Assembly (NCBI GenBank): GCA_008632985.1
Contig: QPGO01000006.1
Location: forward strand, 124,001 to 188,000
Origin: Psammoneis japonica
Lineage: Eukaryota
Length of the DNA: 64,000 nucleotides
Reading direction: 5' to 3'
Shown here: positions 1 to 52,728 of the stretch, piece by piece
How positions within the stretch are numbered: position 1 is the first letter of the stretch
How the letters are laid out: each line of letters begins with the position of its first letter
Notes under the pieces: generated by a model
Database searches by the model: none
The model's input: the letters and a program-made list of their open reading frames with translations, nothing else
What the model was told of the DNA's origin: nothing
Program-made: the position numbers and the translations under genes

Positions 1-3000
1 AAAAAGATGCCACGTCGCAATGCTCATTTTTCCCTCACAAAATTCAACGCAAATTGAATCATGGCACCGCAAGTCCTTGCAACAACATGAGAGTGGTCCC
101 TTTGACGAGGTGGAAATCAGCAATGAAACAACGCTGGAGTCAGGAACTTTCAAGGAAGATGTTTTTGCAAACAAGTCTGTTGCAGCGCACCCCACCAGCA
201 TCTGACGAAAACAACAAAACACCCTTTTGGCGACGCCGCACGTTTGCCACCGGCAGACTCAACCGGTCCCACCGGCTGACTGATGGGTGCTCACTGGAAT
301 CAGCATGCAGCCCTGTGCACAAGCCACCGTGATAGATGAGTTTGAGAGTGCCGCCACAAAACAATGACAACGCAAAGCGACTTCTTCCCGAAGGACATGC
401 GACACAGTCCTGCCCTTGAAGAAAGCTAGAATGTCAGAAGCTGCACAATCACATCTCTAAAGAACAACAAAATGCCACAAGTTGGTGTCACAAATGTGTG
501 TGATCATGTGGTTTTGTTGGTCTGTCCATCGAACGATTTTTGATTTTGCAGGCTTGCATGGTTGAACTTCAACTTGCACAGATGCCCTGCAGAAATGTGC
601 ACAAAAACACACCAAAATCAAAATTTCAAAATCGTGAGGTGGAGAAGTGAAACCACTCTTTCTTCCCTGCACCATCTCGTGGCGACTCCAGCAGATTGTG
701 ACAACAATGACGATGATTGAAAATGTCGCTTGCATGTGTTGAATGTGCTGAGGAGCAAGAAAGAGTGCATCGTCACTCTCTGACTCCTTGTGGCCACAAA
801 ATTTGTCTTCACTGCATGGTTTGTTTGCCAGCAGAAAAGACATCCAAAAAAATAAAACCAAATCTGCTGCATTTACGGTGCTGTCACTCCTTTGCCAGCC
901 AAGCCGGCGCATTGTGGTCAATGCGTCTCGCACCATCCAAAAGAGAAATCATGAATCAGAAAAAAGTGAAGTCGATTGTGAATGCCCAGCTCCTGTCAAG
1001 AAAAAGAAAAAGAGGAACCCCACCAAGTCATGAATGTTGGAATGCCTCCGAGAGAAACAAAACGACGGTTTTTGGCACCAGCTGTGATTGCAGCGGATGG
1101 CCTGCCACTCACAGAGCAAGAGGTGGTTGAAACAGATGAGGATGGCAACATCCCACACACTCCAGTTGGACATGCAGCAGTCAACAGAAAAGGAGACACA
1201 GCTGCCGATGACAACCAAACCAAAATTGCTGTCGCAAACATCTTCAAGAACATGTCATCCGTGCTCTCACCTGTGGTTACAACAGGAAAGAGTGCAGAGC
1301 CAATGAGCCCAAAAAATGCACTCAATCACCTCATGTCAGAAGAAAACAGCACAGCCATGCTTCCATCTATTTTTGCTTTTGACGCCAATGGCACTGACAT
1401 GAATGCTTTCATGGAGACAATGAAGAAGCATGGGAGACAAGGCGACTCATCGGCATTGGCTGTGGGGATGATGACGGCTTTAATTGTGAGAGTTTCAAGT
1501 CAAAATGAGGTGGGGGCTGCCATCAAACGTGTGTCCAATGTTTTCACAACTCAAAAGAGATTCTGTCGTTGGAGATGCTCTTGCCAATTTCAAAGCAACA
1601 ACATCTGCATTGGCCACTGGCATTGCAAAGGCTTCTGAGTGCACTGCAGCCTGCCTTGAACCCAAGGCAAAATTGTTGGCACCTGAGGATGGGGCAATGC
1701 TGACAGCCGACAATGCAGAATTGAAAACAACACATGCTAAAGATGCAGGAGGGTTTGGCAGAATTCAAGGAAGATGCTGTGTTTTGAGTGCTCTGGGGGG
1801 GAAGACCTCAGTTGAGGAGCATTCAGCTGAGCCAGATTGGTCATTCCATTTGACCAATGTCAACAATGTTGTGCTCACTGGTCATGGAAAAGAAGCACAA
1901 CAGCCACATGCTGCGAAATCAGCTCATGTCTCGATTTTTGACATTGACAAAATTTGCACTGCTCACTGGAACAACAGAACAGCCAATTGACAGATGCAGC
2001 AGCATTGATGCAAAGCGCCAAAATCAAAACACACGAGCGCCAACGGCCTCGTTTCCACTTCTGGGGCCCACTGCTGGTGTTCGTCACACCAGAGAGCCGG
2101 GTCGTTGCCAGATGCTAGAAGTGTGATTGTTGAGTTGGTCATGCAAATCAGCGCAAATCACAAGCAACATCATCACTGCCAGATTTTTTTTTTGCTGCCG
2201 TCAGATGCTCAAGGGCGCACCCTTTTCTCCAGTGGTGACTTGCGATGGGAACATTGCTCATCCAGACAGAGGTTGGGGGTCCAATTCTTGGCATCCAACA
2301 CACAGCTGAGTTTGCACTTCTGTGATTTTTCAAGGCTCTCAACAATCAAATCTGGAGCAAGATCTTCTGTGCTTTGAACCCAATCATTGTTTTTCAACAC
2401 CGCGACCACCAGTCCAAACTGCACAACCAAAGCATCGCGATCACGAGAGCGGAGACCAACTTTTGGGATGGGATGTTTGTTCAAGCACGGCCTTCCAGAC
2501 TTTTCAGGGGCATGCACAGTTGAGCATGTCATCATTCATGGTTCACACCTGCCATCAATTGATGGCTCATTCTCTGCAGTGACTTGGGAACGGTCCATGG
2601 CGACCTTCAGTGATGACAAGCCAAAGCCTCTGGGCATCGCAAGGCTTGATCTTAAAGCTGCATGTTGGATCTGGGCATGTCAGAAAGTTTGGAATGCTTG
2701 GCCATTCCATGAAGCTTTGCACGGGATCGAGAATCATTGGCTTTTCTCTTTCGGAGGTCATCCGAGTCGAAAATCCCAATGCAATTTGGAGCGGCTGAAT
2801 GGCACCGATGCTTCAGTTCGGCAAATTTTGACAGAGTTGCAAACTGATGCTTCCTCAACCTTTCCCAAGCTGCCTTTTGCTCTTCTTTTGAAAGATTCAA
2901 CCACCAGTTCACTGCGTGCTGTCATTCGATGGCACAAGTCTGAGCTTGCTGGACCAAACAAAACAAGACAAATCGGAAAGGCATGATGAGACTCCTGATC

Positions 3001-3180
3001 TTTCTGCTGCCTTCCGCTGTTTGGCACTTTGAAGCTCTTGCGCAACAATTTCTGGTTCTTCCACTCAGCAGCATCTTCATTCTTTAGAGCATCTGGTGCA
3101 TCAGCTTCTGTGTGGGACAACTGGTGGTGTTGGGCAACCTTCAAATGTCTCGGTTTGATCAGGCTTGGCGGCAGCGCGTC
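1..3180. other. TpA-depleted, degenerate sequence (left flank of the Copia; contiguous with 8952 onward before insertion)
   Basis: Roughly a dozen TA in 3.2 kb; TG/CA-rich; Tyr-poor, Cys/His-rich ORFs. Removing the Copia rejoins the minus-strand frames 8952-9173 and 2758-3174 in frame (…IRDDA|LPPSLIKPRHLKVAQ…). Confidence 0.8.
3175..3180. repeat. Target-site duplication CGCGTC (partner at 8952-8957)
   Basis: Same hexamer immediately outside both LTR termini. Confidence 0.85.
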
Positions 3181-3484
3181 TGTCGCGGAACATGACTCAG
3201 GCGGGACTCAGATGATTGGGTCCCGTTCACGAATGAAGAGTCACGTGGTTTCTGGTCACAAGAATCACGGCGAACCGGGATGTTTGCGATCCAGGGACGA
3301 TGGTCCCCCGTGATGTTTGACGTGACGTTTGGACGTGTTACTTTGAGTTTGACAGGACTGTAATTCAGAAGAAGTAGAAAAGTAGATTATAATTTAGCGA
3401 GAGTGAGAAATGTGAAGACTATTAATTTTAGTTTTTTGTGCTACTGACAAGGTGTTAGTAGTATCGGCATCTGGTTGTCCAACA
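3181..3484 (+). repeat. 5' LTR (304 bp)
   Basis: Starts TG, ends CA; direct repeat of 8648-8951. Confidence 0.95.
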
Positions 3485-3543
3485 CGATATATATCGACAG
3501 TTTGTGGCAACACTACATTCGAGAGTAGTAAGTGAGAGAAGCG

Positions 3544-4743
3544 ATGAGCAAGGAAGAACAGACCTACGAGACTTCTTTGTCGTGGAGCGGCAAGAGAGAA
3601 GACTTCGAGAATTTTTTGGTGAAATTCGAGGCATTCGAGAGCGACCACGGTTGTGACGAAGCAACCGATGTGGATCTAGGAGATAAGCTTCTCACCAAGG
3701 CGGAATACGTGAATGGAAAGAAGAAAGTAACGCAAGCTAATGGTACAGAGACCGAAGAAGACCTCACAAAGGAGGATAAGAGGTTGTACAAGCTGAACGC
3801 GAAATCATTTTCGAAGATCATCCGTGCGTTGCCTGAAAACTTGATCAAGGCCTGCAAGAACCAAGGTGGACCCAAGAAGTCCGTTTATTTGATCAAGGAG
3901 TACCTCAAGAAACACTACTCGGAGCAGAATGTGGTAGATGATTACCAAAACCTCTACAAGAAGAGGTTGGAGCTAGAACCTGGAGAGTTCGAGATAGCGC
4001 TGTTCTATTTCAACGAGTTGGAGGATATTAACTCCAAGTTGGGAAAGATTGATGAAAAGTATCGCTTAGATGAGCTTCAGTTGAAGACTGATATCTATTC
4101 AAAAGTCCCGGATCAAGGTAACTGGTCCTCTTTCAAGTCCGAGTATCGCAAGGACGGCGCGATGGAGAACATTGCCTACAGTGCGTTCAAGCAGCACTAT
4201 GAACGGGAGTGGAAAGCTCATGGTCCACCAGGAGGATCTACTACATCTATAGATCGATCTTCTGGAGAGGATAAGACCCTAACTATGAAGGTACAGGGTA
4301 GCAAGTTTTTCCCGGGTAATTGTGGGAAGTGTGGCAAGAAAGGTCACAAGTCAAAATTTTGTCCTGACAAGAAGAACGCCAAGACGAAGAAATTCGATGG
4401 CGATTGCTTTTATTGCGGCAAGCATGGACATAGAGCGAGCGACTGCTTCAAGAAGAAGAAGGATGAAAGGAGAAAGACGAAGAAACGAACGAGGTTACAC
4501 TCGGAGTGTTCGATTCCGTCGACTTGGTTGAGGAGGGTAAGGACCCTATTCCAGACTCCTTCTTCGATACCTTCGATACTAAGCCTGCAGTTCGAGACGA
4601 TGAGTTCGAGAGAGAGCTTAAGAGGTGGGATACTCGGTCTGGACTGGGTTACGGCTACGATAGTAGCGGCGAACGCGCGCTGTCATGGTACGAATGGAGC
4701 GAGATGGCAGACGATGAGGACGAAGAAGACGATGACGGCATGA
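3544..4743 (+). CDS. gag: Copia Gag with two CCHC zinc knuckles (true frame probably shifts near 4480 into an acidic linker)
   Basis: CGKCGKKGHKSKFC and CFYCGKHGHRASDC; ATG at 3544; the downstream D/E-rich linker with IPPL..YDS repeats continues in other frames. Confidence 0.85.
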   Translation: MSKEEQTYETSLSWSGKREDFENFLVKFEAFESDHGCDEATDVDLGDKLLTKAEYVNGKKKVTQANGTETEEDLTKEDKRLYKLNAKSFSKIIRALPENLIKACKNQGGPKKSVYLIKEYLKKHYSEQNVVDDYQNLYKKRLELEPGEFEIALFYFNELEDINSKLGKIDEKYRLDELQLKTDIYSKVPDQGNWSSFKSEYRKDGAMENIAYSAFKQHYEREWKAHGPPGGSTTSIDRSSGEDKTLTMKVQGSKFFPGNCGKCGKKGHKSKFCPDKKNAKTKKFDGDCFYCGKHGHRASDCFKKKKDERRKTKKRTRLHSECSIPSTWLRRVRTLFQTPSSIPSILSLQFETMSSRESLRGGILGLDWVTATIVAANARCHGTNGARWQTMRTKKTMTA

Positions 4744-5158
4744 GTATGCCGGAGCTAGAAGGTCCTTTTGTTTCTGATAAGGTCGAGGATGAAAGTATCC
4801 CGCCCTTGGAACCGCGGTATGATTCGACAGCGATTCGGATGATGACGAGTCATTAGAGCTGATCGGCTCTCAACGCAAGTGCACCAACTGTGACGGGCCT
4901 GGACATGTCTATCGAGGCTATCGCACAACGAAGAAAGTTCAAGACGAGGACAAGGGAGACGAGGAAGACAGTATCCCGCCCTTAGTATCTCGTGGCGGTT
5001 ATGATAGCGACTCGAGCGATGACGAGTCGGTTGAATTCGAGGTTGTTTGCTCGTATTGCGGACAGCCTGGACACGAATTCTGCACTCCTTTCCAAGAGTT
5101 TTGGAATAACCCGGATGAAGAGAGCGATGATGACAGTATTCCGACTCTAGAGAGTGGT

Positions 5159-6585
5159 ATGGACTCGGATAGTGATTCAGAGTCCGAGTTTGATTACGAT
5201 TCGGACGACGACTATGACGAAATACTGATGTCCGGTGCGCAGTATGAACCAGAACGTGGCGGTGTAAGGCTACTATTGGACTCTGGCTCGACAGCACATA
5301 CTAAGAGGTCTGTTGAAGGGATGAGGAACCTCAAGGAAGTGAACAAAGTCATGAAGGACGCACACGACGGGAGTTCGGTAGCGAAGCTCCAAGGAGATTT
5401 TCCATTTACGCGTCAGAATGGGGACGGTACAGTAGTTATTACTGAGATGTACGTCCAGCCAAATTTTTCACATAACATTGTGAGTCTGACGAAGCTATTT
5501 GAGAAAAATTGCAAGCTGAGTCCGACGACTGATCCCAAACGAGCCATTGTTCTCGAGTGCCCTGATGGCACGGAATTAATTTTCGAAAAATCAGCGAAAG
5601 ATGGGCTGTTTTATATGGAAGTTGACTCACTGACGGATGTGTCCGAAATGACCGCAGACGTTTCCGATGGACAGAAATCTGGACAAAAAGAGTCGGACAA
5701 GAAAGTCCATGTTAACCGCGCACACATTTTGCTGAACCACATGGGAGAACGCGCGATGAAAATGGCGGCAGCAGATCTCGGTTGGAAATTGACCGGTATA
5801 CCGAAGACTTGCGAGTTCTGTGTCAAGGCAAAGGCTACAGCAAAGCCAACCGTGAAGGCTAGCGATAAGAAAGCGACCAAGCCTGGTCAGCGGCTCTACC
5901 TAGACACGTCAGGACCATACAAAGCGACGCGCGGCAAGAATCGATATCATGTGATGATAGTCGATCAACTTACAGATCGACTTTGGTCGATGTTCCAAGC
6001 GAAGAAAAATGGTTTTACGGACGATATCAAAGCTTTATTGACTAAGCTGAAGGGTCAGGGGTACCCAGTCGAGTTCTTACGGATCGACAACGCTCCGGAA
6101 TGGGGTGCACTCAAGCCAATTTGTGATGAGTATGGGATCACGATCGAGTATACCTCCCCTAATACTCCGCAGTTCAACGCGGCAGTCGAGAGAGCGTTCC
6201 CAACAGTGCGTAATATGGCATACGCGGTACTGAAAGCATCCGATTTCGACGACGCAGAGCAAAGTCGGCAATGGCGAATGCGCTGCAGGACTGCACTATC
6301 GTTCGTAACTTGGTCCCACGTGGGGACTGGAGCAATGCTTATGAACCATTTGGAGAAAAGCCACCCGTAAAAGCCGAAGACCTGGTAGAGTTTGGCGCAA
6401 AGGGGTGGATGGCCAAGAGAAACAAGATCAAGGCCAAGTTTCAAGATCGTGCCGAGGAGGTTCGTCGCGTAGGATACGCTGAGAATCACTCGAGCGATAC
6501 GTATATTGTTCAAAAGTTATCAAATCGTCGTTGTGTGTTGACACGCGACGTGGTATGGGAGTCTAAAGACGATATGATCACCTAG
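5159..6585 (+). CDS. pol: Copia Pol: aspartic protease, GAG-pre-integrase and integrase core (frameshift near 6275)
   Basis: LLLDSGSTAH protease motif; H..LNH...CEFC zinc finger; LYLD, LRIDN and VERAF integrase DDE motifs; C-terminal part in the 6271-6585 frame. Confidence 0.9.
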
Positions 6586-6841
6586 ACCCCGAGACAGTGG
6601 TCGAAAAGCAAACTCCGCGAGTAACTTGGGCGGACGACGCAAGACCGTCAACAGTGGTTGAAGAGATATCACGCCCCTCTCAGTCATCCGCAGACGACCC
6701 CGACTTTCATGATTCTCATTCACAAATTGAGGAGGGAGAAGAGAGTGCAACAGACGGCGAGGAATCAACGGATAGCGAAGAAAGTGACTCCGAGATGGGT
6801 GCGCCACCTGACGGACCAGGACAGACGGATAAGAATCAGCT

Positions 6842-8780
6842 GTGAATAGTCGATTGGAACGCGAGTTGAGCAAGCTGAGGACTTCTTATAACCCAGCTGG
6901 TCTCCCAAGCGACGACGAGGACGAGGTAGAAGCGGTGAATATGGTCGCAGGATATGTTGATCCGAAGAATGATCGCGAAGCGATGACAGGCGACGAAGCT
7001 GACGAGTGGTGGAAGGGTCTAGTCACAGAATACGATGGATTTTTCGACTTGAGAACTTGGATACTGGTCAAGGAAGCCGAATTGAAAGGTAAAAAGATAT
7101 CCAAGCCGCTATCAACGAAGAACGTCTACAAAAAGAAATTACACGCGATAACAAAAGAGGTGCGGTATCGCGTGCGCAACTGCATTCGGGGGTTCGATAT
7201 GATACCCGGAGTTCATTTCGATGAATCTTTTGCACCTACTCCGACGGATCATACTGTGAGACTCATATTGGCGATATCATTATGGATGCTGGAACAGTTG
7301 GAAGTCGATGATATCGACGAAGCCGAGAAGGAGTGGATTGTCGGGCATTTGTTCGATGTTGTGCAGGCATTTCTGAACTCAGAGATGACTGGACCACTGT
7401 ACATGTGCATCTTCCCCTATGTGGAAGGAGTATTGCGAATATAAAGGTTGGGAATACAACGAGAACGATCTTATTTTGCTCGGAAAGGCGCAATATGGGC
7501 AAGTCGATGCCGCGAAGCGCTGGATTGATATGTTTGTCGGAATCATGACTGAAAAGGGTGGCGTCGAGCTTAAACGAAGCAAGACTGACCCTTGTGTGTT
7601 GTACCGTCATGATGACAAGGGGCAATTGGAGATTATCATTTTGATTTATGTGGACGATGGTTTCATATGTGGGAGGCCGGAAGTCGTTAAGGAAGCCAAG
7701 GACTATTTGGCGAAGAGAGCTAAGATACTGGACATTGGACGAATCGACACTCATTTAGGAATTGATTATGAGTTGAAGAAAGACGAACACGGTTGGTACT
7801 TCAAGTGCAGTATGCGCAAGTACGTGGAAAAGATGGTTGCGGAATACGAACAACGCTTCAACAAGACACTTAAGGATTACGAGACACCTGGGGAGCCAGG
7901 GAAGATATTGATGAAGGCGGACGAAGACCATGAGCCGGTCGAGCAAAACGGATACCGAGCCTTCGTCGGAAAGATCCTATATGCGATGTTGAAGGTCTTA
8001 CCTGATTGCGCGAATGCGATTAGAGCGTTGACAATGCATTTGACGAATCCAACTAAGGATCACTGGCACGCGCTGGACAGACTTATGGGACATCTGAAAT
8101 TTCACTATCAGCCGTTGAAGTTGAGGTCACCTTTGGAATTAAGGAGCATAGGGATATTCGACGCTGAGTGGGGGACGGACAAGAATGACAGAAAGAGCAT
8201 TTCGAGTGACATTTCCACACTGGGCGGTACGTCGTTAACTAATTGGCAATCGAAGAAGCAGACCTCTGTGGCGCTGAGCAGTTGTGAAAGTGAGACCATA
8301 GCGGGCACGGCGTGCGCGCAGAGCATACAATTCCAGAATCATTTATTGGAAGAGCTGGTAGGTACGGACATGTTGAAGATGCCGAGTTATGCGTACGGAG
8401 ACAACGCCGCATCACTGTTTCTGGCTGTTAACAACCAAGTGGGACAGCGGACGAAACACATTCACATTCGTGATAGATATTTGGGCGAGTTGGTTCAACG
8501 TGGAGAAATTGAACCACGCCATGTCAGTACGGAGAAGAACCCGGCAGATGTCAACACCAAGAACGCGAAGATCGAAACGCACAAGAGACTAGCTCAGAAC
8601 CTGTATGACGGATTCGTGATGGTTGAACCGGAACCAATCAAGGAGGGTGTCGCGGAACATGACTCAGGCGGGACTCAGATGATTGGGTCCCGTTCACGAA
8701 TGAAGAGTCACGTGGTTTCTGGTCACAAGAATCACGGCGAACCGGGATGTTTGCGATCCAGGGACGATGGTCCCCCGTGA
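6842..8780 (+). CDS. pol: Copia Pol: reverse transcriptase (RVT_2) and RNase H (frameshift near 7410)
   Basis: RGFDMIPGVHFDESFAP, DVVQAFLN, KAQYGQVDAAKRW, IYVDD; RNase H motifs WQSKKQTSVALSSCESE and RTKHIHIR. Confidence 0.92.
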
Positions 8781-8951
8781 TGTTTGACGTGACGTTTGGA
8801 CGTGTTACTTTGAGTTTGACAGGACTGTAATTCAGAAGAAGTAGAAAAGTAGATTATAATTTAGCGAGAGTGAGAAATGTGAAGACTGTTAATTTTAGTT
8901 TTTTGTGCCACTGACAAGGTGTTAGCAGTGTCGGCATCTGGTTGTCCAACA
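8648..8951 (+). repeat. 3' LTR (304 bp)
   Basis: Identical to 3181-3484 except at 8888, 8909, 8926 and 8930; preceded by the purine run AAGGAGGG (8640-8647). Confidence 0.95.
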
Positions 8952-11900
8952 CGCGTCATCGCGGATCATCGGTTCAAGGTTTTCTCCCCAAATGACCCCC
9001 TTTCTGCTTGGGGAGGATGGCCAATTCTCCATTGCCATGATTGAGGAATGTGAGGTGAGACCCAAGCACCACCGCTTGAAGATGACTGGCGTGTCTGCCC
9101 TTTTGGGGGGACACTCATTGCTGCCAGAAGGAGAGGATCCAGTCCACCAGTTGTGACACACACAAGGGCACACTTGAGTTTGAGGAGTTCATGGAGTTGG
9201 CTCATTGCAAGGAATCATGGGAAGGAAAGTTGAGGTTCATCTCTTCTTCTTTCCTGATCCCCTTGCATGGACTCCTCTTCATTGTAAATGATCTCCAACT
9301 CAATGGCAATCTTTTGCGCTGTAGAGTCATTTGCGCAGAAATGTGTGGAACAGTGCCAAGACAATTGTTGAAAAGTCTGTCTGTCTGTCCTCAGTGAATT
9401 TTAACTTTGCGAAAAATGGACTTGACTGTTTTCTGATCAGGTGCATTTTTCTTCAACACATTTGCAAAAATGCACCTGACCCAACAACAGTCAAGTCTGT
9501 TTTTGCACAAATTGTGTGAACATGACAGTTTCAGTGCAAAAACATGCAGATTCTGCAGGTGTCCACAATTGTTTCATGCTTTTTACGTCACGGGTCATTT
9601 TCGAAAGATTCCCATTGGTCAAGGTCAGTGCAGGCAGCAAGTGCATTGTTTTCAAGGAGGGCACAACCAAACATGGTGGAGAAACCTGCAGCATGCAACA
9701 GGACAAGTCATGGAGGACAAGCACCCATGTGGGCATGTGGGCCACATGCCCGCATGTGATGCTGATTGCACAGTTGACCACTCAAGGATCTGTGTGGATC
9801 AAAGCCATGATGACTTGCACATGTCAGCAAAGCACCTTCCAGCATTTGCATGGGAGGATGTGACCAGAGAGGTGGGGCATGTTGGCAAGAAATTCACAGA
9901 CATTTTCAAGAATGCAGAGCTCAAGGGGATGTTCAGAACTTCAGTTTGAGGTGTGCCAGATGACTGGGAACTGGCTGATGAAGCAACACAAGGCAGATGA
10001 TTTGGAAAAACAACTCAAGAAACAAGGCAAGATGAAATTTGATGAAATGTTGAATGCTGCTGTGGCAGTGCAGCATGTGGTGGGCACAATCATGATGAAG
10101 GAGGGGAAAAGGAGGTGCTCTGACAATGTGGGGTCAACAAGGATGTTGAGTGGACAGCCCATGCAAAGTTGGAGATTCTGTGAGGGAAACAAACAAGTTG
10201 AGCCAACAGATGAGCAAAGAGTGCAAGGAGCAGGCACAGCTTGCAAAGAGTGGTGGGCAGAGGCAGGAGGAGGAGGAGGCTTTGTCAGCTGACCCAGCTG
10301 AAAAGCTCAAAGGAAGTGACAATGCAGAAGAGGTGGCAGAAGCATTTGACAAGGTGGCTGGGTCCAGAGAGGGCAAGTCAATGCAGAAGAAGAGCAAGAA
10401 GCCAAGCCAGGAGAATGCTGCCAGGAGAAAGAAAAGACCAAGAAGAAATTGAACAAAAACAGTGGTTGAATCAAACAGAGCTGGGACCCTGGAAACTGCA
10501 AAGTGGTTGTGAGCAAAAAACCTTGGAGAGGGAGAAAGAAGCTGCTGGTCTGTGCTGCAAAGCTTGGAGCGGTCCAGCCATGTCAGCCAAAGGAAGTGCA
10601 TTTTTGGTGCTGACAAATTGAACTGCAAAGGACCCAGATGCTTGCTGAGTGCCCAGAAAGTCAGTCAAGAGGGGGATTCCACCAGGAACAAAGCCACCTC
10701 CACACTCAAACTTGAGCATGAAATTAAAAAGAATCTGGGAGAGACCAGAGCAAATTGAGTCCATGCAGTTGCAGCCATCCTTGAACATCAGGCACAAGCC
10801 CCCACAAGCTCAACATGCCTGCCCTGGGAAAAGCAGCAAGAGTTTGAAAGAAAACTTAAGTGGCTTGTTGAGGCAGACACAAGCTGCCCAAAATGAGCTC
10901 AATCTTTGTGCAGAGGGGGTCAACAAGTGACAGATTCTGAAGGGCCCTCTTGAGTTGGACTCTTTGCTGAGCAGCTGTGTGTCTCACTTTCTTCATTTGC
11001 AAACATCTGAGATGAAACATTGGATGCTTCAAATGATGTGACAACATCACATTTGTTGAAGCATCAGGCAGGGAGAAGACATCCGCGATGCTCTTCTGCT
11101 TCATTTGGGCATTCATTGCCAGCAGCAAACCATCAATGACTTCATGACATCTGTGTGAGCTTCACAAAATGTCTCATCAGCATTGATTTCATCACATGCC
11201 TCTCCAATCAACTTGACAACGGTGCTGGCAGTCCACAAATGGTCCAGTGCAATGGGCAGAGAGTGCACAATGACCATGTTGCATGACTCGCCATCATGTC
11301 AGCAGCATGTTCTGTCTTGAACTTGTTGTCTTTGTGCTTTGTTCTTGCCCAATTGTTGATGAACTGACAAAGCTGAAAACATGGTTCAGCAGTGTTTTCA
11401 TTCATTGTGGTCAGATGAGTCCTGACAGTCCAGAGCCACTCTCCTCTGGATCTCTTTGTCATTTTTGCAGCTGACTCTCATGGCAACATCTGCCAGCAAT
11501 CAGCTTCTCACTTCCTTGTTCAGGCACCCAGAGAATTGGACCTTGTTCTCCCTGTCCACAACCACAAGCTGAACAATGTTGTCCACTAAAGTGCCAGTTG
11601 TTTGAATGCAAAGAGGCAGCTTCTGCTCCAGGGGAGGACAGCTGAGAGCCTGGCTGTCAACAAGTTTGACTGCAGAGACAACTGGGTTTGTGTGGTTGTT
11701 CTGTCTAGAGTGACAACAAGAAAGGGACTTTGTCTCAGGAAGAAGCTTGATGACAGGAAGACAAAGGGCACATTGTTGGCATTGAATGAGTTCCTTGGTC
11801 ACTTCAGGAGAGCACAAGAGGGCCCCAAGAAGGCCATCAGGCTCCTGCTGCAAATGACTGTGCAAGGCATTGCAGCTGAAGATTGCGGTCATCAGACAAT

Positions 11901-14150
11901 GATTTTTGACAATGCAGCAACAACCCAGGCTTGCATCATGTGATTGTCCTTGTCAGGTGCAGAAACAAGGGGGTTGAGCAAGTTGTTTGTGCTCATGATC
12001 TCCAGTTTGAAAGTGAGCACATGCACAAGAAGCACAAAATCCAAAAATCCATCACATCAATGGAAAAAGGTGCTGTGTCATGTTCGCTGATCAAGGGCAC
12101 AAATGTGTTTGGCACAAATGACCTCAAAACAGAAAACAGCCAATGAGCTGGCTGGGAGTCAATGGCGTCTCAACCAAAAAATGACTGAGGCAATGCAAAA
12201 CTTTGAATGTTTTGCGTTGGTGAACACAGCCATTTTTGTGAAACCCCAAACCATGGGAAAGTCGCTGCACTCCATTTTGCACACAAAGACCACTTGCCTT
12301 GCAAATTTGGTCATTTTGAAAGTGGTCAGCCCCAAACCCCGACTTCGTCTTGCCAATCTGTCTTGGGTCCATTTGGGGTCTTCAGGGCAGGGAGGGACAC
12401 AGACGGACACCTCCACAGAGAACATTTCTGCCACAGAATTGCTGAGGGGAGCACCACAAGTGGGAGACTCAGCCACCAACAGCAGCTGCTCTTGAGTGTC
12501 TCTGCTGCTGCCCTCCTCTGAGGCATTCTGTCTGCCACAAACCAGCTGGCAGAAGCCAGGTGCAGGACCAAACCTCAGAGGATGCACAGAGTGACAATGA
12601 GAAGAGCCTCCAGGGGTTGGGGCACAATTGACAAGGGTGCTCCATGCCTCCCCAGGGAGTTGATCCATGTCACTTCCAAGACTGGGCAGGGCTTGCATCA
12701 GCACAAAATCAGCAACTTCAGACCAATCAAGAAAGCAGCCTTTTGGGTGGCTGTGCACAACGGTTTTGTCATGGCACAGGGTGTGGGAGGGAGGGAGCTG
12801 AAACAAAAATCAAGGTGAGGAGGAGAATGACAAAGTGCTGGCATGGTGAGTTGCTGTTTTTTTTTGTCGGTGACACTGTGTGGCTGCTGGGATTCAGAGT
12901 GCACAAATGAGCCACTGTTGCTTGATGACATTGATGGATGAATGTTGATGGATGAATGTTGTTGGTGATTGAAGATGCACACAAGAGGGGCATTGCATCT
13001 CACAGTGGTGCAAACATGACATCTGCACTGGATCAGCAAATTGTTGGTCAGGTGCAACTTCAACAGCAAACATTTTTTGATGAGATTGAAGCAAGTCAAA
13101 GCATTCATTGCATTGATGTTTGGAACTTGTGGGGTGATTCACATCACAGAAATCACATGTGTGTGTGCACAGGATCAGCAAATTGCTGATCTCACACTGT
13201 TGGCCTCAGTGGAAATTTTGGTTGATCATCCACCCGTGTGCTCCACATTGCTGGGTGGGACTTGTTGCACCACACTTGCGCATGACTGGAGATGTCGAAA
13301 GAGCAAAAGCTCAAGGTTGCAAACTGGCAGTTGTTGTTGCTGCAAAAGCTGCTGACTGAAAATTGTGACTGCAGTGTCAGTCAAAGATTTTGATGGTGGA
13401 ATTTGAAAATGGAGCATGCGAGATCGCAAATGGATGACCATGCAGAATGACAGACGTCAACTCTCCCTCTCAACCAACTGACCATGCACAGAGCCGCCAG
13501 CCACAAAGCTGTCCACTGCAAACTGCGAATCCGCAGCTCTTCACAAAACCTGTGGGATTTACACTGGAACTCATGTAGAATTTGATGTGGGTGCAACTCC
13601 ATTTTGACAAGGACAAGTGGAGCTGCACGGTCCATTTGAGCACATGTTTGACAAGGATGCCTGAGGAGGAATCCTCTTCATTCATTTCCTTCATTCCACT
13701 CAGGCGCTGGGATGATGAAGCACACATTTTTGCACCCACGGACAAAAAGTGCCCTGCCCGGCAAAAGGCACTGGAAAAACCATGCCCTGCTGGGCGTTTG
13801 GCTTCTTTGCAGAGTGCCTGGTGCCATCCACATGTGCAACCCCGCTTGCTCTTTTGGAGCTCTGACAGCAGCTCCCTCCAACACAAGTTTTCACATCAAG
13901 AAAACACCACAGCCAACCATGAGCCATGAGCCACTCTCCTGCCTGCTCCCACCCTTTCCAGCCACAAGACAACACCTGCTCGCAGCACAGCCAGAAGAGT
14001 TGCTTGCATCGTGTGGCAATGAAGAAAATGACATTTTTGGCCTGACAGCTTCTCAAAAAGTGTCTGCTTTTTCGAGCGGCATTTCAAGATTTTGCAAAGT
14101 TCACTCCCTCACTGAACTTCATGTTGGTCCTGCATTTGTTGCAACAGAGC
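8952..14150. other. TpA- and CpG-depleted degenerate domain (unidentified decayed element or genes)
   Basis: About ten TA in ~5.2 kb by eye; CpG also scarce; no recognisable intact ORF. Confidence 0.8.
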
Positions 14151-24200: not shown

Positions 24201-26502
24201 TTTGAAATTGTTGATGGTCCGGTGCATGGGCATCCATGGCTGAACTGAAAAAAAAGGCACCAGTGTCTCGGGATTTGTCTGCTGCATCAACCCTTGCCTC
24301 AGCAAATGCATTCTCCAAAGCCACCACAGTTTCCAATTTGAGAGCTTGCCACTTTCTGACTCTTGCTCCCGCATTGAATCAGACTGCAAAATGCTTCTTG
24401 GTCATCAGCCGCCCCCACGATGATTGGATTCTTGGACTCTTGTGGCTCTTTCACTTGCGTGTTCTGGGGAGAAGCAACTGATTCCTTGATGTCTGAAGTG
24501 GATTGTAAGAAGTGCTTCAACACTTTCCAACTTGAAAGGTTCGCTGTCTTCTGACTCTGCCTCTCGTGTCTTTGTGGAATCCAATCTCTCCCTGTCAACA
24601 GCTGCAGCCGATCTCTTGTGGCTTTTTCCCTTGTGCGCACTCTCTGCAGCAGATTCTGCAGTGGCATGTGGATGATTCTGGATTCTCCAAGGCTGCAATG
24701 CTTCATTCTCCTTGATTCTTCTGCTTGAGTCATTGTGGAAACCAATTCCTCGTTCACTCTAGCTGCACCCGAAATGATTGGTGTGCTGACTTGCTTGCTC
24801 TCTGTGGCAGCGATTCTGTGGCATTTGCAGACGACTCTAACTTTTCCAAAGCTTCAGCGGTTTGCAAGTAGAAAATTTCTGTCTTTCTAACTCTTCATCT
24901 CAAGTCGTGTTGGATTTCATTTTCTCATTGTCAGCAGCTGCACCCATGATGATGTGAGCCAAGATCTCTTTTGGCTCTTTTCTGCATGTCTTTTTGGCAG
25001 CAGACTCCTCAGCATCCACAGATGATGCCAGAATGACAAGAGCCTCAATCGGCAACTGACAGCGCCAAATCAGATGCCGCCCCAAAAACAAGAGTTTTTG
25101 TCTCAACTGATTGTTCTTTTTTGGGTTTCGTCTCGGAAAGTGATGCAATGGATTCTGGAGAGTGTCTGCAGAGCTTCCTTGACAAAAATTGGATCTTCCT
25201 TTGCTTGTCTTCATTCGCTTTGTCCGCAGTTGCCTCCAGGATGTCAGTTGCATTTTCTTCTGACAATTTTTCTTGTGACACCGTCTCAGCTGCCGGCTCT
25301 TTTACAGCCTTGAGAATGAGGCCCCTCTCTCTTTGTTCTGCCATTCCTGACGCCACTTCTCAGGCATGCCTTCTGGAATTGTGGTGCTTTTCCACTGCAA
25401 GTCACTGGCTCAAGAGCTGGGCACAAAACAGTGTGAGCAGCCAACAGAAGCTGCACAGCAAACACATGTTAAAGCATCAGTCAACAGGGTTGGCCTTTTC
25501 CGCTGTGTTGGCGTTTGTTGTTTCTGCTTTCCAGATGGACAGATGGGTATCATCTTCTGCCCAACAAGAACCGCGCAAGTCTCCTGCTCAAGCTCAAATG
25601 ATTGCAGCCTGCCTGGGCTTGCCTCGGCCTCCTTCTCCTCCAATTTAAGTCTGAACTCAGCTGCCCAGTCAAATTGTTGCAGACTGCCCCGGCACGCATC
25701 GGCCTCCTCTTCCCGGTCAAATGATTGCAGCCCACCCTGGCATGCATCGGCCATCGGCCTCCTTTACCTGGTCAAATTATTGCAACCTACGGTAAAGCAG
25801 TGCTACCCCGGTGCCAGCACCTCCATGCATCGGCTTCCTTCCTCTTCTTCGTTGTGGTGAGAATTTTTAATTTCGAAATTTTGTATTATTATTTAAGTCT
25901 ATAAATATTTTATATGAAGTACTTTGTATATGTCAATAATATAATATATATCTATTTTAAAAATTTAAATTAGTCTACAAAATATGAATTTATATAGGAT
26001 TAACAATGGTTTCTCAGTATTTGAAATTTTTTTGTCCTACTCTATGCCAATAGTGAACGGCACGCCACAATGTACAGTACTGTAAGACTTCCGGTAGGGC
26101 CCTATCCCGCCCCAAAATGAAAACTTGAAAACACCGATGACAATGACAATGTGCACAAGCCAACACCCCCCACATCTATAAACAACGAGACGTCGCTTCG
26201 CTCTCACCGTTGTATGTGTCATTTGCAATACAAAAGTTGGAAGGATGCAGTAACGCATTGTGAAGTTTCATCCCGAGCCATGACACGTCGCTTCGCTCTC
26301 CTGTGGTGTCGTCATAGCCATGCGACATGCGAACGATGGAGCAGCACGCGCAGTTATAGTGCAACAGCTTCTTCCTTGCCCCTTACCATCGAGCACGATT
26401 CCCTTGTTCGGGGACCGAAAGGTGGCTACTTAGGACAAATGAAACATTGACTTGCCCTCATTGCAGCACATCAAACAGTGTGCAAAAACATGCCGTACGG
26501 CA

Positions 26503-26848
26503 TCTTCTGCCGTTGCACTTTGGATTTCTCCTACGTGCCAGCCACGTTGCTGCTCGTACAAGTCTCATTGCCGTTTCAGTCTTCGATGATTTCTTCTGCC
26601 GTTGCACTTTGGAGTTCTCCTACGTGCCAGCCACGTTGCTGCTCGTACAAGTCTCATTGCCGTTGCATTCTTCGATGACATCTTCTGCCGTTGCACTTTG
26701 GAGTTCTCCTACGTGACAGCCACGCTGCTTCTCGTACAAGTCTCATTACCGTTTCAGTCTTCGATGATTTCTTCTGCCGTTGCACTTTGGAGTTCTCCTA
26801 CGTGCCAGCCACGTTGCTGCTCGTACAAGTCTCGTTGCCGTTTCAGTT
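26503..26848. repeat. Tandem repeat, 4 x 89 bp
   Basis: Unit TCTTCTGCCGTTGCACTTTGG...CTCGTACAAGTCTCATTGCCG starts at 26503, 26592, 26681 and 26770. Confidence 0.95.
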
Positions 26849-27195
26849 TTCTCTGCACGTAGGAAATGGTAAGTTTTCCACGACGCGCTCTTCATTCGCT
26901 GCTTCGTGTCATCCCATTTCTCTCTCTGTCATAATTCATTCTCGTCCGCCTTTGTCAACCACACCCCAAACACTAGCACAAGCCTTCACAAGCCACACAG
27001 TCTCATCAACAAAGATCCCGCGAACTTTGCAAAGGGTGAGCAGCGAGTGTCGTATTTAACGTGATCCATGCATGCCTCAAGCTCACACGTCGTCATCATT
27101 CTTGAACACACTTTTTGCAGTACCGCTATATTTCCTCGTCGTACCCTTTCGCATCTAAAAACAGGTGAGTTTCTGGATTCGATTGTTTCGTCTGT

Positions 27196-38448: not shown

Positions 38449-41400
38449 CTGCAACAGGAATGAAGTGAAAATAAAGTGAAGCACAGATGTTCGTTTCATT
38501 TAGACAGAAAATGTTAAAAGCACGATCGTCTAAGATCGATGGGTGCGACATCTGCGCCAAATGACTATCGCGAAACTTTCTACGAACATCAACTCAACGC
38601 GACAACGGCTGAAGACACGTGGATTTCTACGTGGTTGCACCAAATCGCCTCCATTGCAGACAGAATTCTCTTCTCGTTTGAGTGCTCTCACAATTTCTGA
38701 ATTGCTCGTCAGTTCACAGTCCATCATGAAAATCATGAACTTTGTCCTTGCCATCATTGCCGCCATGAGTGCTGGTGCAATCATCAGCCCTCTCTCTGCC
38801 TCGTTTGTTGATGCGGCAAAGCGCTCCGTTAGCGCCTTGTCGATCAAGGCCGCCACGGCGACCGACAGCATCGCCACGTTCAACCAAGAGCTCCCACGCA
38901 AGTTTTTGGACAACAACAGTTGCTCAGATGTCGATGCAACCTCCAGCTGCCACCATGACATCATCAGCAATGCTGCTCCCAGCACTGTTCCCTTCGAAAA
39001 CGCCGCCATCACTTCCAGCTTTTGCGTCTGTTTTGACGACGGCGACAAGTCTCCGAGTCGCGTCCAAGACCTCCTGCACAATGCCACGCCCACGATTGTG
39101 CCAGAAGAAGATGCCAACGAGTGTTGTGTCCATGACTGTTTTGTGCCGGACAACAATGGCGACTCCAACGGCAGCCTCCAGCAACTTTTTCTCAACACTG
39201 CTCCTGATGGCACGATTCAGACCAAGGCAGTCCCGTTCCAAGATGCGTTCACGACATTTTTTGGAGATCCAGTCGGCCTTCTTGTCGGACACACACGACA
39301 GCTTTTTGGGTGTCAAGACGGAAGCGTTTCAGCTTTGGTGGAAACTTGCAGATGCATTTTCGAACGACGTCATCGCGAAAATCCAGACTCAGGCTCGCGT
39401 TCTCAAAACCCCCAGAACAATTGATTGCCAATGCAGTCAATTGCAATTAATTGCAATTGTCAATTAATTGCAGCACGTTCACCTGTTCCTCAATGCATTG
39501 GCTTGAGTTACATTGCGCTTGATTGCCGAATGTTGTGTGTAAAAAATTGCATCTTTGTTGCACCTTTCTCAGCACAAAAAAGACGTGGTTTTCTGCACGG
39601 TCATAACTCCGTGGTGAGGAATTGTCGGTGTGGTTCTGGCACTTTTGCTCAGTTTGTTTGTTGTTGTTGTCGTCGTCGTCGCGAACGGTGTGTCACATCG
39701 CATCCCACTTCCTTCCTCCACAATGGAGCAAGCAGGAGACTTGCCCAAGGGCAAAGAACTTGTGCTCCTTGTCATGGATGTTGAAGAAACGACCGTCACG
39801 CTTCTCGATGAGGATGTAAAAGGACATAAAATCACGTGCCCAAACTGCAAGAACTGCTCGAAATTCATCAAGAAGAAAGATGGGTTTGCCAACCCCTGCA
39901 ACCATTGGCTCTCTTGCGTCAAGGATCAGGCTCCTGTCATTGTTGCTGAGCGCAGAAAACAATTGGCTGAAGCCGAAGCAAAGGAAGCAGAGGCAAAAGA
40001 GGGCAACTCGGCACCAGTGCAACAGAAATTTCAGGCTGTCACTAATTTCCACCGCTCGCTCCATGTGTGGACAGAGAAAATCGTCCTTCTAAATCGTCCA
40101 GTCAGCTGCGTGACGAATGAGGTCGAACAGTCTCATGCAAAGCATCCTGAAGTGTCCAGCACAGAGATGGCACTGGACACCATGTTTCACCTTGCTGAGA
40201 CAGTAGAGGGGAAGATCACTGATGTGATGGAAATGGCACCGGGTTGCCAAGTTGTTTGTGATGGCTGGACCAAGTGTGGTGTCCATTGTGTGGCCCTGTG
40301 TTCTTCTTTCAACAAGAAGCTGCGCATCATTGTAGACAGAACCGAGGAAACAAGAGAGATGCATGAGTTGCGTTCACTGTCGGCATCACCCATGCCGGCC
40401 ATGTCGGAGGATGACAAGGATGACAAGGACCTCGAAGCGGTGTCATTTGATGCAGACCACCACCAGAACCTCATTGAAGAAACATTCGACGTGTGTGACA
40501 AGCATGCCACATGGTTCATCCTTTGTCAAGCCGCCGACAGCGCATCCATCAACATCAAGGTTGCAAATGACATGGGCCATCCTCATGTGTCTTGCAAGAA
40601 TCACAACCTGAAGAACGACCTGATGATGGCACGGAATGAGGAGCTGAAGGATTGCACCACCAAGGTGTGCAATCTATCTTCATCTGTGAGGGCCTCCGCC
40701 AAATGTTCTGCTGCACTCCGAAATGCTGCTGCCAAGCCTGACAAGCACAGCAGCGTCCGTGCAAAGGCCACATCCATCACAAGGAAGTGGACAGGGTTGG
40801 AAGAAGCCCTCGGGTCCCACCTGAAGCTCCACCCTCATCACCACAAACTCATTGAAGAGGACAAGTCGGGCAAGCTGCAGGAACACCAGGAAACTGCAGA
40901 GATGTCCTTCGTTGGGAAATGCAAGACTCACGGCCGGCATCTGAAGCAGATGAAGAAGGTGTCAGCCCACATGCAGAGTAAAAAGAAATCGCTCAGCAAG
41001 TGCCAAGATCTTCTGAACAAGCTGCGTTCGAAGGTGACAAGGAAAGCGCACAAGCCCAAAAGCAGTTGCCACAAGTGCACCCCGGCAGGAACGCGACAAT
41101 TTTTTGCCTTTTCGGAACCCATTCTTGTCCAACCATCTCTCTGAGATCAAATCGAGTGTTGGACATTGGGGGAAGAGAGATGTGGAGATTGCAAAGACTT
41201 GGACGAACCTGCTGTGTGAAGAGGTGTTGCTGTTCTGGAACCCAATTTTGTCTGACTGTCGCTCTGCGATTGAGTGGAAAGCCAAGTGTTGGGGGGCGAG
41301 AGTTTTAGATGCATCGACTCATGTGATGAACGTTCTTCAAGATTCTGTGCCAATTGTGAAACCCCGCGAAGAAACCAAGAATGTTGTTGTTGAGGTTCTG

Positions 41401-42984
41401 GCACCTGCCATTGGAAGTTGGGTCACGACATTGAAACAAATCAGGCTCGCCTTTCGAATCGGTGCTTTTCAAGCACCCGGGAAAATTAGAATGTCAGTTG
41501 GGAGGCAATGCAATCGAGACGTTAGTGAGTCTCGATTGGCATCGAGGGGACACATGTTGCCAGTTAGATTCGAGCAGAAAGCATGGCACAGCATTGCAGT
41601 TGTCGTTTGCTTGTCTGCCACAGAGTGTTTGCCGCTTCGACTGCCAATCTTAACACACATTTTGTCGATGTCACTCTGCCGAGACAAAGTAGAGCCAGCA
41701 GACTGGTGCTTGTGACGGTGTCGTCTTCACAGTCCCTGCATTTTCCAGAGTCGGCACTGATCCAGTCGACGACGCCTGTGTTGCAAATGCAGACTCAGCA
41801 CATCCGCCTGGGCATGTGCATAGACCCACAGCACACATTCCATCATCGTATTCTCGGCACCGCAATCCACAATTCGAAAGAACTGAGAATGGACCACACC
41901 ACTTCTGTGTCTGCTGGATTCATTGCTCCTCCCATTGTCGTTCAACATCACTCCACAATGTCAATTTCCGTCTTCGACTCATGCCATTTGCCATCAATTG
42001 TCATGTTGCGTGTATCGACATCGTCAATTGCAACAATCAAATCGTCCACCCGAATCACACCCAGCAGTGGACTATCGTCCTTGAGCGACATGACTTGGGG
42101 TCCATCGAGTGTGGTGTCGACAACAATTCCCAATCGACCCAGTGGTGCGTGGACATCTTGTTGTGCCTTTCCGGGTGGAATGTCATGTTCGTTTTGAAAG
42201 GACGGTGCCGACAAGGAACCATCGGCTGTGGCAGCACCCAACATGGTGGTTCCACTCGACATGGAACCAGGATCATACGTGGCCGCATCTTGAATGCCGT
42301 CGTCAAGCGAATGGGCACATGTCAAGTCGCCTCCGCCCTTGCTGGGAATGCTGTTTGCCAGATGCGATCCATCGTTCCACGATGAGTCGCCACTGGATTT
42401 GGTTCGTTGTCGATGCGAGTGACTGCTCACTTGACTCTTGGGACTGGCTTGACCATCCTCCACGTAGGATAGATTGGAGGAACGAGCCGAACTTGGTGGT
42501 GCTTGTCGTCGTTGTGGTTGTTTGGACTTTTTCAGTGGAGTCCAAAAGGAACTGTCCAATTTCCTGTTCTTCGAAGCAGCAGCATTCGACAACGAAACCA
42601 TGGATGCATTGACGGCAAGAGACGTGTTGTTGTTGGGACCCATGCTTTTGAAACAGTTTCGTGGTCGAGCAGTCGTCCTTCTGGCATGACGACATCCCAC
42701 GGCAAAGAGGCAACACACAATCGCGGCACCCAAGACAATGGCAATGATCACTCCTGTCGAGAGTCCACTGTTCGAGGAAGAAGTTTTTTGCCATTGTTTT
42801 CGACATTGTTGGTTTCGTCTTGCATCACGGAATTGACGGACGTGACGGTGGAAAAGTGATCATCACCCAATTGCTGTAGCAGCGAAATAAAAGCTGGACT
42901 CTGTACGGCAAAGACATTTCGTAACAGACGACTGTAATCCAAATCCTCCGATGCAGTTGCAAAGCCTTGACGAGGACGAAAGTC
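38449..42984. pseudogene. Hypermutated duplicate (copy 1) of 52968-55835, interrupted by a hAT fragment
   Basis: Colinear with the secreted-protein gene and the 3' half of the PDZ membrane-protein gene; Tyr codons read Cys/His; frameshifts present. Confidence 0.93.
39404..41084 (+). mobile_element. 3'-truncated hAT-like DNA transposon (BED finger plus DDE transposase), hypermutated
   Basis: Inserted between GTTCT and GCAGGAACG of the parent sequence; motifs CPNC...NPCNHWLSC, VCDGWT, ADSASIN, SCKNH (CxxH) and TRKW; CAATTG/CAATTAATTG palindromes at the 5' end; no TSD seen. Confidence 0.8.
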
Positions 42985-45900: not shown

Positions 45901-46199
45901 TTTATGGTCGATGCGTTTGCAGCCAAAAGACTCTGAGGCAACGCCGTGGGCACAGACCACCGGCACGTCGAAAATGTGTCAATCGCTTCTCCCACCCCCT
46001 CGACATCATCCTCCTTTTTCTCTGGAACAATGGGGGCGTTGCAGCAACGGGCGGTGGTGGCATCATCACGTGTCGTTGACGCCATGTTGTTTTGTGCAAC
46101 AGTTTCAAGTTTCAACAGTTGACTGGCATCTGGCATCAACAAAGTTGGACGACGGGCGGAGTGCGGATGGACGGAAAGCACCGGCAGGGTCATGAGGTT

Positions 46200-48385: not shown

Positions 48386-48386
48386 T

Positions 48387-49310
48387 TGGGTGGTAGATAC
48401 GTGATATAATGTGAGATTGCAACCATTGATGTTCTTTGGGAAACTGGTGCTTGGTTGTGCAAGAAAACCGCATGGGTGACGGCGTGCTTTTGGTCCTATC
48501 GTGGTTCATTGTTGCAGATGGTTATACTCGGCGATCAGCTCCACAGATGGAAACAAACTCGTTGCCAGGGAATGTGAGTAAGTTGGGATCACGTCGATGA
48601 AATGCATCATGAACGCCACCTCCATTGGGCTCGGTGACAATGCTAGACCTACACAGTAACTTGCGAGCTCCAAGTCCGGAACGACAAGCACGAGAACTCG
48701 GTGGTCTCTCCATCGGATGACGAGATGATGATTCGAATCGTGCATGCAAATCCGAATCGTGCTTGTGCGACTTGGCATGCGGTAAAATGCCACCACATCT
48801 CTGTGAAGGCACACAACAGTCACCATGCTCTTCAAACGTAATCGCGGCCGTCGCTCGGCCTCTTTCTTGTGCCTCAACAGCAAGAAAATTTCAGGCCTCC
48901 CCCAACAATCCATCGACAAGCAACACCAGTGCACGTTGCCTTGATCATCGTTCTGAGGCTTCCTCTGCCTCAACGGCAAGAATGTCACAGGGTGCCCATC
49001 ACGCCAGTGACTCAAGCAAGCAAGACAAACCCTCTGATCATCCTCTTCCTGTCTCCTTGTTTATTCTGACTGCAGCAATCCCGATCGGTTGCATTGCATC
49101 GCAGACATGTGGCGTTTTCTTTGCAAGTGTGCTGGCTGTCTTCTTCTTTCTTGCAGTGCTTCCGGCTGAGTCGGCGATCTGTTTTCCCCGCCAAGTGTTG
49201 ATTTCCACCCTCCTTCTTTTGGCACTCATTGAGATGGGTGGGATGATTGGCAGTTGTTGTTTGCCAGTTGCCAAGCCGGAGTGTGTCTTGCTTGATGAAA
49301 AGGGCAAAGA
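48387..49310 (+). repeat. Diverged duplicate of ~37467-38020 (end and 3' flank of the PRCC-like gene), with insertions
   Basis: Shares TGGGTGGTAGATA...GAGATTGCAA, TTTTGGTCCTATCGTGGTTCATT and GCAATCCCGATCGGTTGCATTGCATCGCAGACATGTGG. Confidence 0.8.
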
Positions 49311-49829
49311 ACAGCTCCTTCCGCAAGAAAAGGGAACCACTGGCTTTGCCAAGGGACTCATGATGGGGACAGCAGCATCGATTTTGTCTTTTCTTCTGCT
49401 GCTTTTGCCAAAGGAGACACACAGAGGAATTCTTGTCATCTGCGATCCCCTGCACCGGATGCCCCCACATGGTGAGCTCATTGTTTCCAGCTGACGGCAG
49501 TGCCTGCGACTCGATGCGCTGCCAAATTTAGAGCAGCGAATGAAAATCCACAGTTGTGGTTGGAGCATGTAAAATGACAGACTCGAATGGCTTGTTGTGA
49601 TTGTGATTCTTTTGGGTGGGCAGTGCCACAACAGAGAGAATCACACCAGAACCAAAACGAAGCACCTTGAGCAGCACAGCACCGCTGTTTCTCCACTTCT
49701 CCGAGAAAAACCATCTGTTGCTGCAGATGACTTTTTGGATTCAGTCTGTGCTTTCTCTTCCTTTCCACTGTCCTTGGGGCTTTTCTTTTGTGCTTTGGTG
49801 CCTTTTCAAGAAGATGAGCTGGAGAAAGA

Positions 49830-52515: not shown

Positions 52516-52728
52516 GAAGCTGTGCAACTCTTCCATGGGAAGCAATGAGTTCTTGCAAAAAATCAACTCACAAGCTCAAACACACAAAAGTGCATGATTG
52601 TGCACCAAGTCAATCATCAGCTGGCACAGAGTGCCATGAACTTGGAAGTTCAATGACCCCAACAAGCCAGACTTGTCAGGAAGAAAAGCTGGCACACCCC
52701 CATCCAAAACGAAATTGTGGGTGGCAGT
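52516..52728 (+). pseudogene. Decayed fragment of the PRCC-like C-terminus
   Basis: KLCNSSMGSNE versus KMYNSSMGSDE; CCAAAACGAAATTGTGGGTGGCAG versus CCAAAACGAAAATATGGGTGGTAG (stop TAG read as CAG). Confidence 0.8.

Follow-up and report, generated by a model that had tools for sequence, protein, structure and literature searches.

The window analysed here, a 64-kb stretch of contig QPGO01000006.1 of Psammoneis japonica, contains a copia-type LTR retrotransposon at 3181-8951 (Table 1). It belongs to Ty1/copia by its paired LTRs with TG...CA ends, its target-site duplication and its domain order with RVT_2: the Pfam matches along the gag-pol frame were zf-CCHC, Pol_BBD, rve_3 (E 8e-4, below the cut-off) and RVT_2, and RNase H had no Pfam match in this frame. 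TG/CA ends, a target-site duplication, LTR pairs of more than 95% identity and the PR-IN-RT order are also described for the diatom CoDi elements of Ty1/copia type, as is a CCHC finger for CoDi6.2-6.5 (Maumus et al. 2009, PMC2806351), the likeness being by description and not by tree; no named CoDi sequence was among the matches listed for the element. The TATA-like element with TGTAA ahead of it has a layout known from LTRs (PMC3601003), and the first of the changed sites described below (8888) lies 34 bp downstream of it, so that the zone of changes coincides with the putative R-U5. The palindrome at the primer-binding-site position includes several ATAT steps, which are the context most sensitive to these changes, and self- or dimer-priming from it is a possibility. 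Among the contigs listed, it is eroded in at least four other copies, where TG replaces TA just past the 5' LTR.

Table 1. Features of the retrotransposon, its flanks and the three-copy segment (positions in the 64-kb window)
Feature	Position	Strand	Remarks
TpA-free 5' flank domain	1..3174	.	TpA counts
5' target-site duplication copy, CGCGTC	3175..3180	+	identical to 8952-8957, perfect 6-bp
5' LTR, 304 bp, TG...CA ends	3181..3484	+	14/14 TA intact, none in first 158 bp
Two predicted RNA hairpins in putative R-U5	3415..3464	+	fold prediction
12-bp perfect palindrome at primer-binding-site position	3485..3496	+	TA-rich, intact; sequence
gag-pol reading frame	3544..8780	+	Pfam; 3' end reaches 133 bp into 3' LTR
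Putative polypurine tract, short purine run ahead of 3' LTR	8640..8647	+	sequence; putative function
3' LTR, 304 bp, TG...CA ends	8648..8951	+	TA intact 10/14
TATA-like element, TGTAA upstream	8852..8862	+	sequence
Four TpA losses	8888..8930	.	A>G at 8888, 8930; T>C at 8909, 8926
3' target-site duplication copy, CGCGTC	8952..8957	+	identical to 3175-3180
TpA-free, CpG-poor 3' flank domain	8958..14100	.	TpA/CpG counts
Repeat in 3' flank domain	about 9182-9603	.	contig depth 2,800-9,500
Copy A of segment	38449..42984	.	94 TA lost over full length; sequence comparison
Copy B of segment	46200..48385	.	TA loss declines from TA-free domain on left
Copy C of segment	52968..55835	.	TA-rich, reference; sequence comparison

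The frame of the window (3532-8780) is broken seven times by one-base deletions relative to short-read contigs, which carry an extra base, each within a homopolymer run, at 4465, 4824, 6272, 6564, 6830, 7396 and 7413. Each of the seven contig indels has the position and direction of one of the frame changes. The deletions look like long-read errors, and the element is probably intact, because the contig indels account for all of the frame breaks. Other broken frames of this assembly may likewise be read errors. The perfect target-site duplication, the absence of any non-TA difference between the LTRs and the frame breaks explained by read errors are signs of the youth of the element. One contig of 1,582 bp at a depth of 216.6 matches the window except for one letter and two gaps, and junction contigs of other copies have depths of 33-38, suggesting the presence of several near-identical sister elements, depth being no copy number. 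The contigs come from runs X1 and X2, as none of run X3 aligned to the window; X1-X3 represent one sample, possibly the source of the assembly itself, and are not independent of the window. In metagenome contigs, a 23-base LTR pattern had no matches, and a search with the RT protein gave no confirmed locus.

The interior of the element has a normal TpA observed/expected ratio (o/e 0.67). There are four TA in 1 kb of the 3' flank (o/e 0.06) and two in the 5' flank (o/e 0.03); the preliminary description of this DNA had spoken of a TA-free flank, and the 3' flank is indeed TA-poor, if not strictly free of TA, as is the 5' flank. In the window as a whole, 63 of the 128 500-bp bins have a TpA o/e of less than 0.25 (about 0.05 there), only two bins fall between 0.25 and 0.35, and most other borders of TA domains are sharp steps. 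CpG o/e is 0.25 in the 3' flank versus 0.51 in the 5' flank. Young elements of Phaeodactylum are reported to be methylated in a DNMT5-dependent manner (PMC9998398), and by analogy the CpG loss would fit old methylated DNA. Other copies of the repeat in the 3' flank domain keep TA or CG at five or more sites where the window has lost them; this repeat also contains a 39-bp inverted repeat (9412-9450, 9466-9504). The reading frames of the flanks had no Pfam match and no tblastn match to copia relatives.

Elsewhere in the window, a tandem array (26501-26851) with units of about 89 bp (92-96% alike) is TA-normal and not erased although repeated, which suggests that repetition alone is not the trigger of erasure. 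A glycosyltransferase family 90 gene (60968-62605) stops about 450 bp short of a sharp transition into a TA-free domain (about 62700-63050). The best-matching named relatives of the gene at 57999-60155 are from Nitzschia, Amphora, Seminavis and Phaeodactylum, which marks the host as a pennate diatom.

The two LTRs differ at four of 304 positions (3421A/8888G, 3442T/8909C, 3459T/8926C and 3463A/8930G). At each of these sites the 5' LTR has TA where the 3' LTR has TG or CA, and all four lie within the last 64 bp. They are exactly the TpA losses at the outer edge of the 3' LTR that had been pointed out in the preliminary description, whose further statement that TTAA and TTAG survive there, in an otherwise identical LTR pair, is also correct (TTAA at 8890, TTAG at 8896 and 8923). 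All 17 CpG of the LTR are unchanged. The probability that four random differences would all land on TA bases is 6e-5. TA sites changed more than 13-fold faster per base than the upper bound for other sites, which is a lower bound and bears out the earlier claim of a rate much above background. The 14 TA of the LTR are unevenly placed: seven lie at 159-215, another seven in the last 65 bp, and the first 158 bp are devoid of them. Thus, the clustering of the losses is partly given by the concentration of targets in the outer part of the LTR, and the 5' edge of the element, having no TA in its first 158 bp, cannot record the process.

For this TA-free start of the LTR (3181-3338, 8648-8805), 6.8 TA would be expected from the interior (p about 0.001), and the longest TA-free gap in the interior is 112 bp. 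The first 133 bp of the LTR double as coding sequence for the end of pol. The TA-free start may be due to inherited erosion or to selection favouring an edge that offers no target.

Within the 3' LTR alone, TA was lost at four of seven outer and none of seven inner sites (Fisher p 0.07), and a context-weighted simulation of the same edge test gave p 0.028; the edge effect within the LTR alone, at p about 0.03-0.07, is weak. Over all 28 TA of both LTRs the edge test gave p 0.0012. Since the edge zone was chosen after inspection of the data, all three p values are optimistic. When the edge is set against 2,749 bp of the interior, TA was lost at 4/7 versus 0/122 sites (p 3e-6, or about 3e-4 once some 90 possible zones are allowed for), and all TA located at least 90 bp from either edge of the element are intact. 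The interior control is the sequence under six contig pieces for which all differences to the window are listed (X1 record 1 and X2 records 8, 9, 10, 11 and 13), six of the 16 pieces listed, with 585 further ones. The control leaves out X2 records 12 and 14, with three unlisted differences each, X2 record 7, which lies inside record 1, and seven pieces of X1 records 2-6, which are divergent copies. No contig among those listed bridges the 3' LTR and its flank. At six sites (5223, 6131, 7727, 7811, 8107 and 8850), TA is kept in the window and most or all of the contig depth has CA or TG; some TA losses may have been inherited by transposition in sister lineages, or may be recurrent.

TA is the ancestral state of the changed sites. 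In run X1, the contigs have A in 655.8 of 936.2 depth at 8888 and T in 839.4 of 967.8 depth at 8909, these two being the changed sites with contig letters among the 40 of 1,277 rows listed. Folded as RNA, the 5' LTR version of 3415-3484 reaches -19.5 kcal/mol (z -2.99) and the 3' LTR version -15.6 (z -0.52); all four changed sites are Watson-Crick paired in the predicted hairpins of the 5' LTR version, and two of the four face each other in the predicted stems. The same fold as single-stranded DNA was not above chance (z -1.1). The ancestry of TA is also supported by opposite changes in two copies of another repeat, given below. The direction proposed earlier, loss of TA in the 3' LTR, agrees with both the contig majority and the hairpin pairing; a family consensus equal to the 3' LTR, which had been named as an observation that would overturn it, is contradicted at 8888 and 8909, where the majority has the TA letter.

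A second record of positional loss is provided by the three-copy segment. Compared with copy C, copy A lost 94 TA and gained two, and copy B lost 47 and gained six. Of the 93 TA sites shared by copies A and B, 17 read TG in one copy and CA in the other, which leaves a TA ancestor as the sole simple explanation. In copy B the loss falls with distance from the erased domain (17/20, 11/17, 10/29, 4/15 and 4/12), forming a gradient of about 2 kb (Spearman -0.46, p 5e-6), while copy A at those same sites is 73-100% erased (16/20, 17/17, 23/29, 11/15 and 11/12). Non-TA divergence of copy B is 7% in the first bin and then 1-3%. At its right end (4/12 lost) a second gradient is not clear, and copy C directly adjoins a TA-free domain yet keeps its edge TA. 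The preliminary description had the mutation spreading inward from the neighbouring domain: the edge restriction in the element and the gradient in copy B both agree with this, while the role it gave to the flank as the cause does not follow from them, as the R-U5 border coincides with the zone of changes.

The segment (38449-55835) is gene-like, with a PDZ domain at 54778-55710, and its copies represent three stages of erasure. Copy C has TG or CA at six sites (54449-54927) where copy B has TA, and copy A carries a 1.7-kb insertion at 39404-41084.

The spectrum of the changes is narrow. In copy A, A>G was found at 94 of 233 TA adenines versus 10/394 AA, 15/398 CA and 6/431 GA adenines (31/1,223 non-TA adenines together). 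The base after TA matters, with relative loss rates of 1 for TAA, 1.5 for TAG, 3.0 for TAT and 3.5 for TAC (competing-risk fit, 206 sites, p 3e-5); the base before TA has p 0.07 alone and brings a small gain on top of the +1 effect (p 0.045). Across 31.5 kb of erased DNA, most of the remaining TA are in TTAG/CTAA, CTAG and TTAA. TTAA and TTAG survive in the LTR because the process favours TAC and TAT and these contexts are poor on both strands: among the last seven TA of the LTR, the four with a good strand were lost and the three without one were kept, and 8909 changed on its poorer strand. Both strands are hit, with two TG and two CA in the LTR and 54 TG and 40 CA in copy A. Strand coordination is absent (40 of 82 close pairs are same-strand, 41.9 expected), as is clustering, so that the losses arise independently of one another, probably in the course of many divisions.

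Several other processes fit these observations poorly. Patchy, processive action was suggested by eye in copy B and did not stand the test (p 0.19-0.95). Editing of retroelement RNA or cDNA of ADAR or APOBEC type does not agree with A>G and T>C changes that are interleaved without strand coordination, and since both strands are hit independently, editing of a single RNA or cDNA molecule is excluded. Mutagenesis by polymerase eta at WA motifs gives A>G at AA plus TA, in strand-coordinated patches; here AA is not above CA, and there are no patches. RIP of ascomycetes also consists of dinucleotide-specific transitions that wreck repeated DNA and leak across its borders, but its C>T changes create TpA from CpA, whereas the process in the diatom removes TpA. 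The mutation described here is not RIP: TA is lost and not gained, and not all copies are hit, as the 5' LTR is unchanged at all 14 TA and copy C is TA-rich. As one LTR of the pair and one copy of the three-copy segment escaped, copy pairing is not what selects the target. In Neurospora, methylation is reported to leak about 200 bp out of elements (PMC7518705).

The mutation type is already known from the rhizarian Bigelowiella natans, in which TpA-specific hypermutation was described (Mettrop et al., bioRxiv 10.64898/2026.01.13.699255, preprint). According to this preprint, A:T>G:C transitions occur there at TpA only, on both strands and regionally, in silent foreign-derived DNA, and the clusters are TpA-poor, CpA/TpG-rich and accompanied by transposon domains. 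P. japonica shows the same confinement to TpA (all four LTR differences, and the adenines of copy A), the same action on both strands in the LTR and in copy A, and the same regional pattern that spares the rest of the window. B. natans differs in its integrated giant-virus and virophage DNA, in a TpA o/e of 0.45 and in a rate measured in lines, about 1000 times background and active in some lines only, for which an ADAT2-like enzyme is an unproven candidate. Peculiar to the diatom are the o/e of about 0.05, the retrotransposon edge, the gene-like duplicates, the preference for TAC and TAT and the positional gradient; in the main text of the preprint, the terms diatom, LTR, spread, context and trinucleotide do not appear. 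It was the only relevant paper found on TpA loss in diatoms, algae or transposable elements, in a search that had most subscription journals outside its reach.

The chemistry might be that of a TadA/ADAT-type adenine deaminase, the class also proposed for B. natans, in which A is converted to inosine and read as G. TadA enzymes are reported to prefer TA/UA, and wild-type TadA edits UACG (PMC12265680), in line with TAC as the best context here; the strict A:T>G:C change and the TA specificity would also fit such an enzyme, whose natural substrate, unlike the present one, is tRNA and whose involvement here is suggested by the mutation pattern. Nothing was found on the context of adenine editors in PMC10953296. 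On the present data the altered base may be either the A or the T. The deaminase is favoured with about an even chance; thymine oxidation at TpA is an idea of rather low probability, and an error-prone polymerase or another source is unlikely.

The most probable explanation, and one that we consider likely on the whole, is that silent domains are subject to a host mutator of chromosomal TpA, which entered the element through its 3' flank. The copia element would have inserted recently into a silent domain already stripped of TpA. A host process guided by chromosomal position, possibly by the spreading of chromatin, would convert A:T to G:C at TpA only, best at TAC and TAT, and would have crept 65-95 bp from the 3' flank into the element, altering the four most favourable targets in separate events, on either strand, and leaving three poor ones (TTAA and TTAG). 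An equal creep from the 5' flank would leave no trace in the TA-free first 158 bp. Against this explanation stand the small number of events, four at a single locus, and the width of the front, which is below 100 bp at the LTR versus about 2 kb in copy B; copy C is unscathed beside an erased domain, copy B is without a clear second gradient, and most borders in the window are sharp. In addition, the zone of changes coincides with the putative R-U5, whose border could be a product of reverse transcription.

Reverse transcription can switch from one template to another, and the 3' R-U5 might have been copied in this way from the RNA of a TA-eroded, co-packaged sister, or else gene-converted, the TpA process having acted elsewhere with no spreading at all. 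The differences begin about where R would be expected to start, and eroded sisters do exist, since at least four contigs across the junction of LTR and primer-binding site (33-38x) have TG for TA. Gene conversion is predicted for 25% of plant LTR pairs (PMC7251063), and the literature search found no paper in support of transfer between two templates. Such a hybrid LTR is nevertheless improbable. Both LTRs share a T at 3436/8903, between the first two changed sites, where 12 of 12 contigs (1219/1219 depth) have G, and a donor of the common type would have introduced this G, a test that loses its force should the T be due to systematic misreading. Both LTRs also share a minority T at 8878, and no non-TA or CpG difference was transferred; a suitable donor would share the rare subtype, differ at TA only and still function despite a broken hairpin. 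It is also quite improbable that the same mutator was guided by features of the LTR, such as read-through or antisense transcription or hairpins exposing the 3' R-U5, with no causal role of the flank. All four sites lie in predicted stems and the zone begins at the presumed transcription start, but the identical sequence in the 5' LTR is untouched, the single-stranded DNA fold is at chance level, and the gradient of copy B exists without any LTR.

An assembly artefact, either an interior flattened to the family consensus or four erroneous letters, is very improbable. The long-read assembly is imperfect here, as the seven one-base deletions indicate, and near-identical sisters exist; however, the interior keeps its indel errors and so is not a consensus, it has at least seven private substitutions against all contig depth (4709, 5223, 5313, 5809, 7803, 7811 and 7844), random errors would hardly strike TA four times, and the non-TA letter is present in 280 depth at 8888 and 128 at 8909. 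A difference of TA versus TG or CA is a signature of RIP as well, so that a RIP-like C>T process might have made TA in the 5' LTR; this opposite polarity, or a single round of RNA or cDNA editing before insertion, is barely credible. TA is both the family majority at 8888 and 8909 and the hairpin-paired state, copy A has 94 losses versus two gains, and two A>G together with two T>C changes are impossible from one single-stranded molecule.

With the mutation rate of 4.77e-10 reported for Phaeodactylum (PMC6604790), the naive age of the LTR pair is 1.4e7 generations, and the absence of differences at 276 non-TA positions gives a 95% upper age of 1.1e7 generations. At a rate of about 1e-5 per TA, borrowed from B. 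natans and obtained by our own calculation from counts in the preprint, four hits in seven sites would need about 9e4 generations. The preliminary description had called the mutation recent or ongoing and had warned of a bias in LTR dating. Its recent date is supported by the perfect target-site duplication and the lack of other LTR differences, while present-day activity is no more than a possibility; the bias has the direction expected, and its size is left undefined by an LTR so short that the upper age stays close to the naive one. On this reading, LTR ages in genomes of this kind should exclude TA sites.

To the system known from B. natans this locus adds a view of the process at an early stage, in an element that is probably intact, together with a control from the interior, a read-based direction and a context rule. 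A broader possibility, which we hold as tentative and rather doubtful, is that diatoms defend themselves by adenine editing of DNA under the guidance of chromatin, with a front that moves out of silent domains into fresh insertions and is recorded by young LTRs at a resolution below 100 bp, and that the element has been shaped by this defence, its outer 5' end being TA-free over 158 bp and undamageable and the TA-rich end exposed on its 3' side being one that is not passed on to daughters. LTR pairs provide dated controls for the reach and the context of such a mutator. If the mutator acts as proposed, a position-dependent TpA-erasing process, working near saturation, would be present in a second eukaryotic supergroup, and a DNA adenine editor occurring in nature would attract broad interest.
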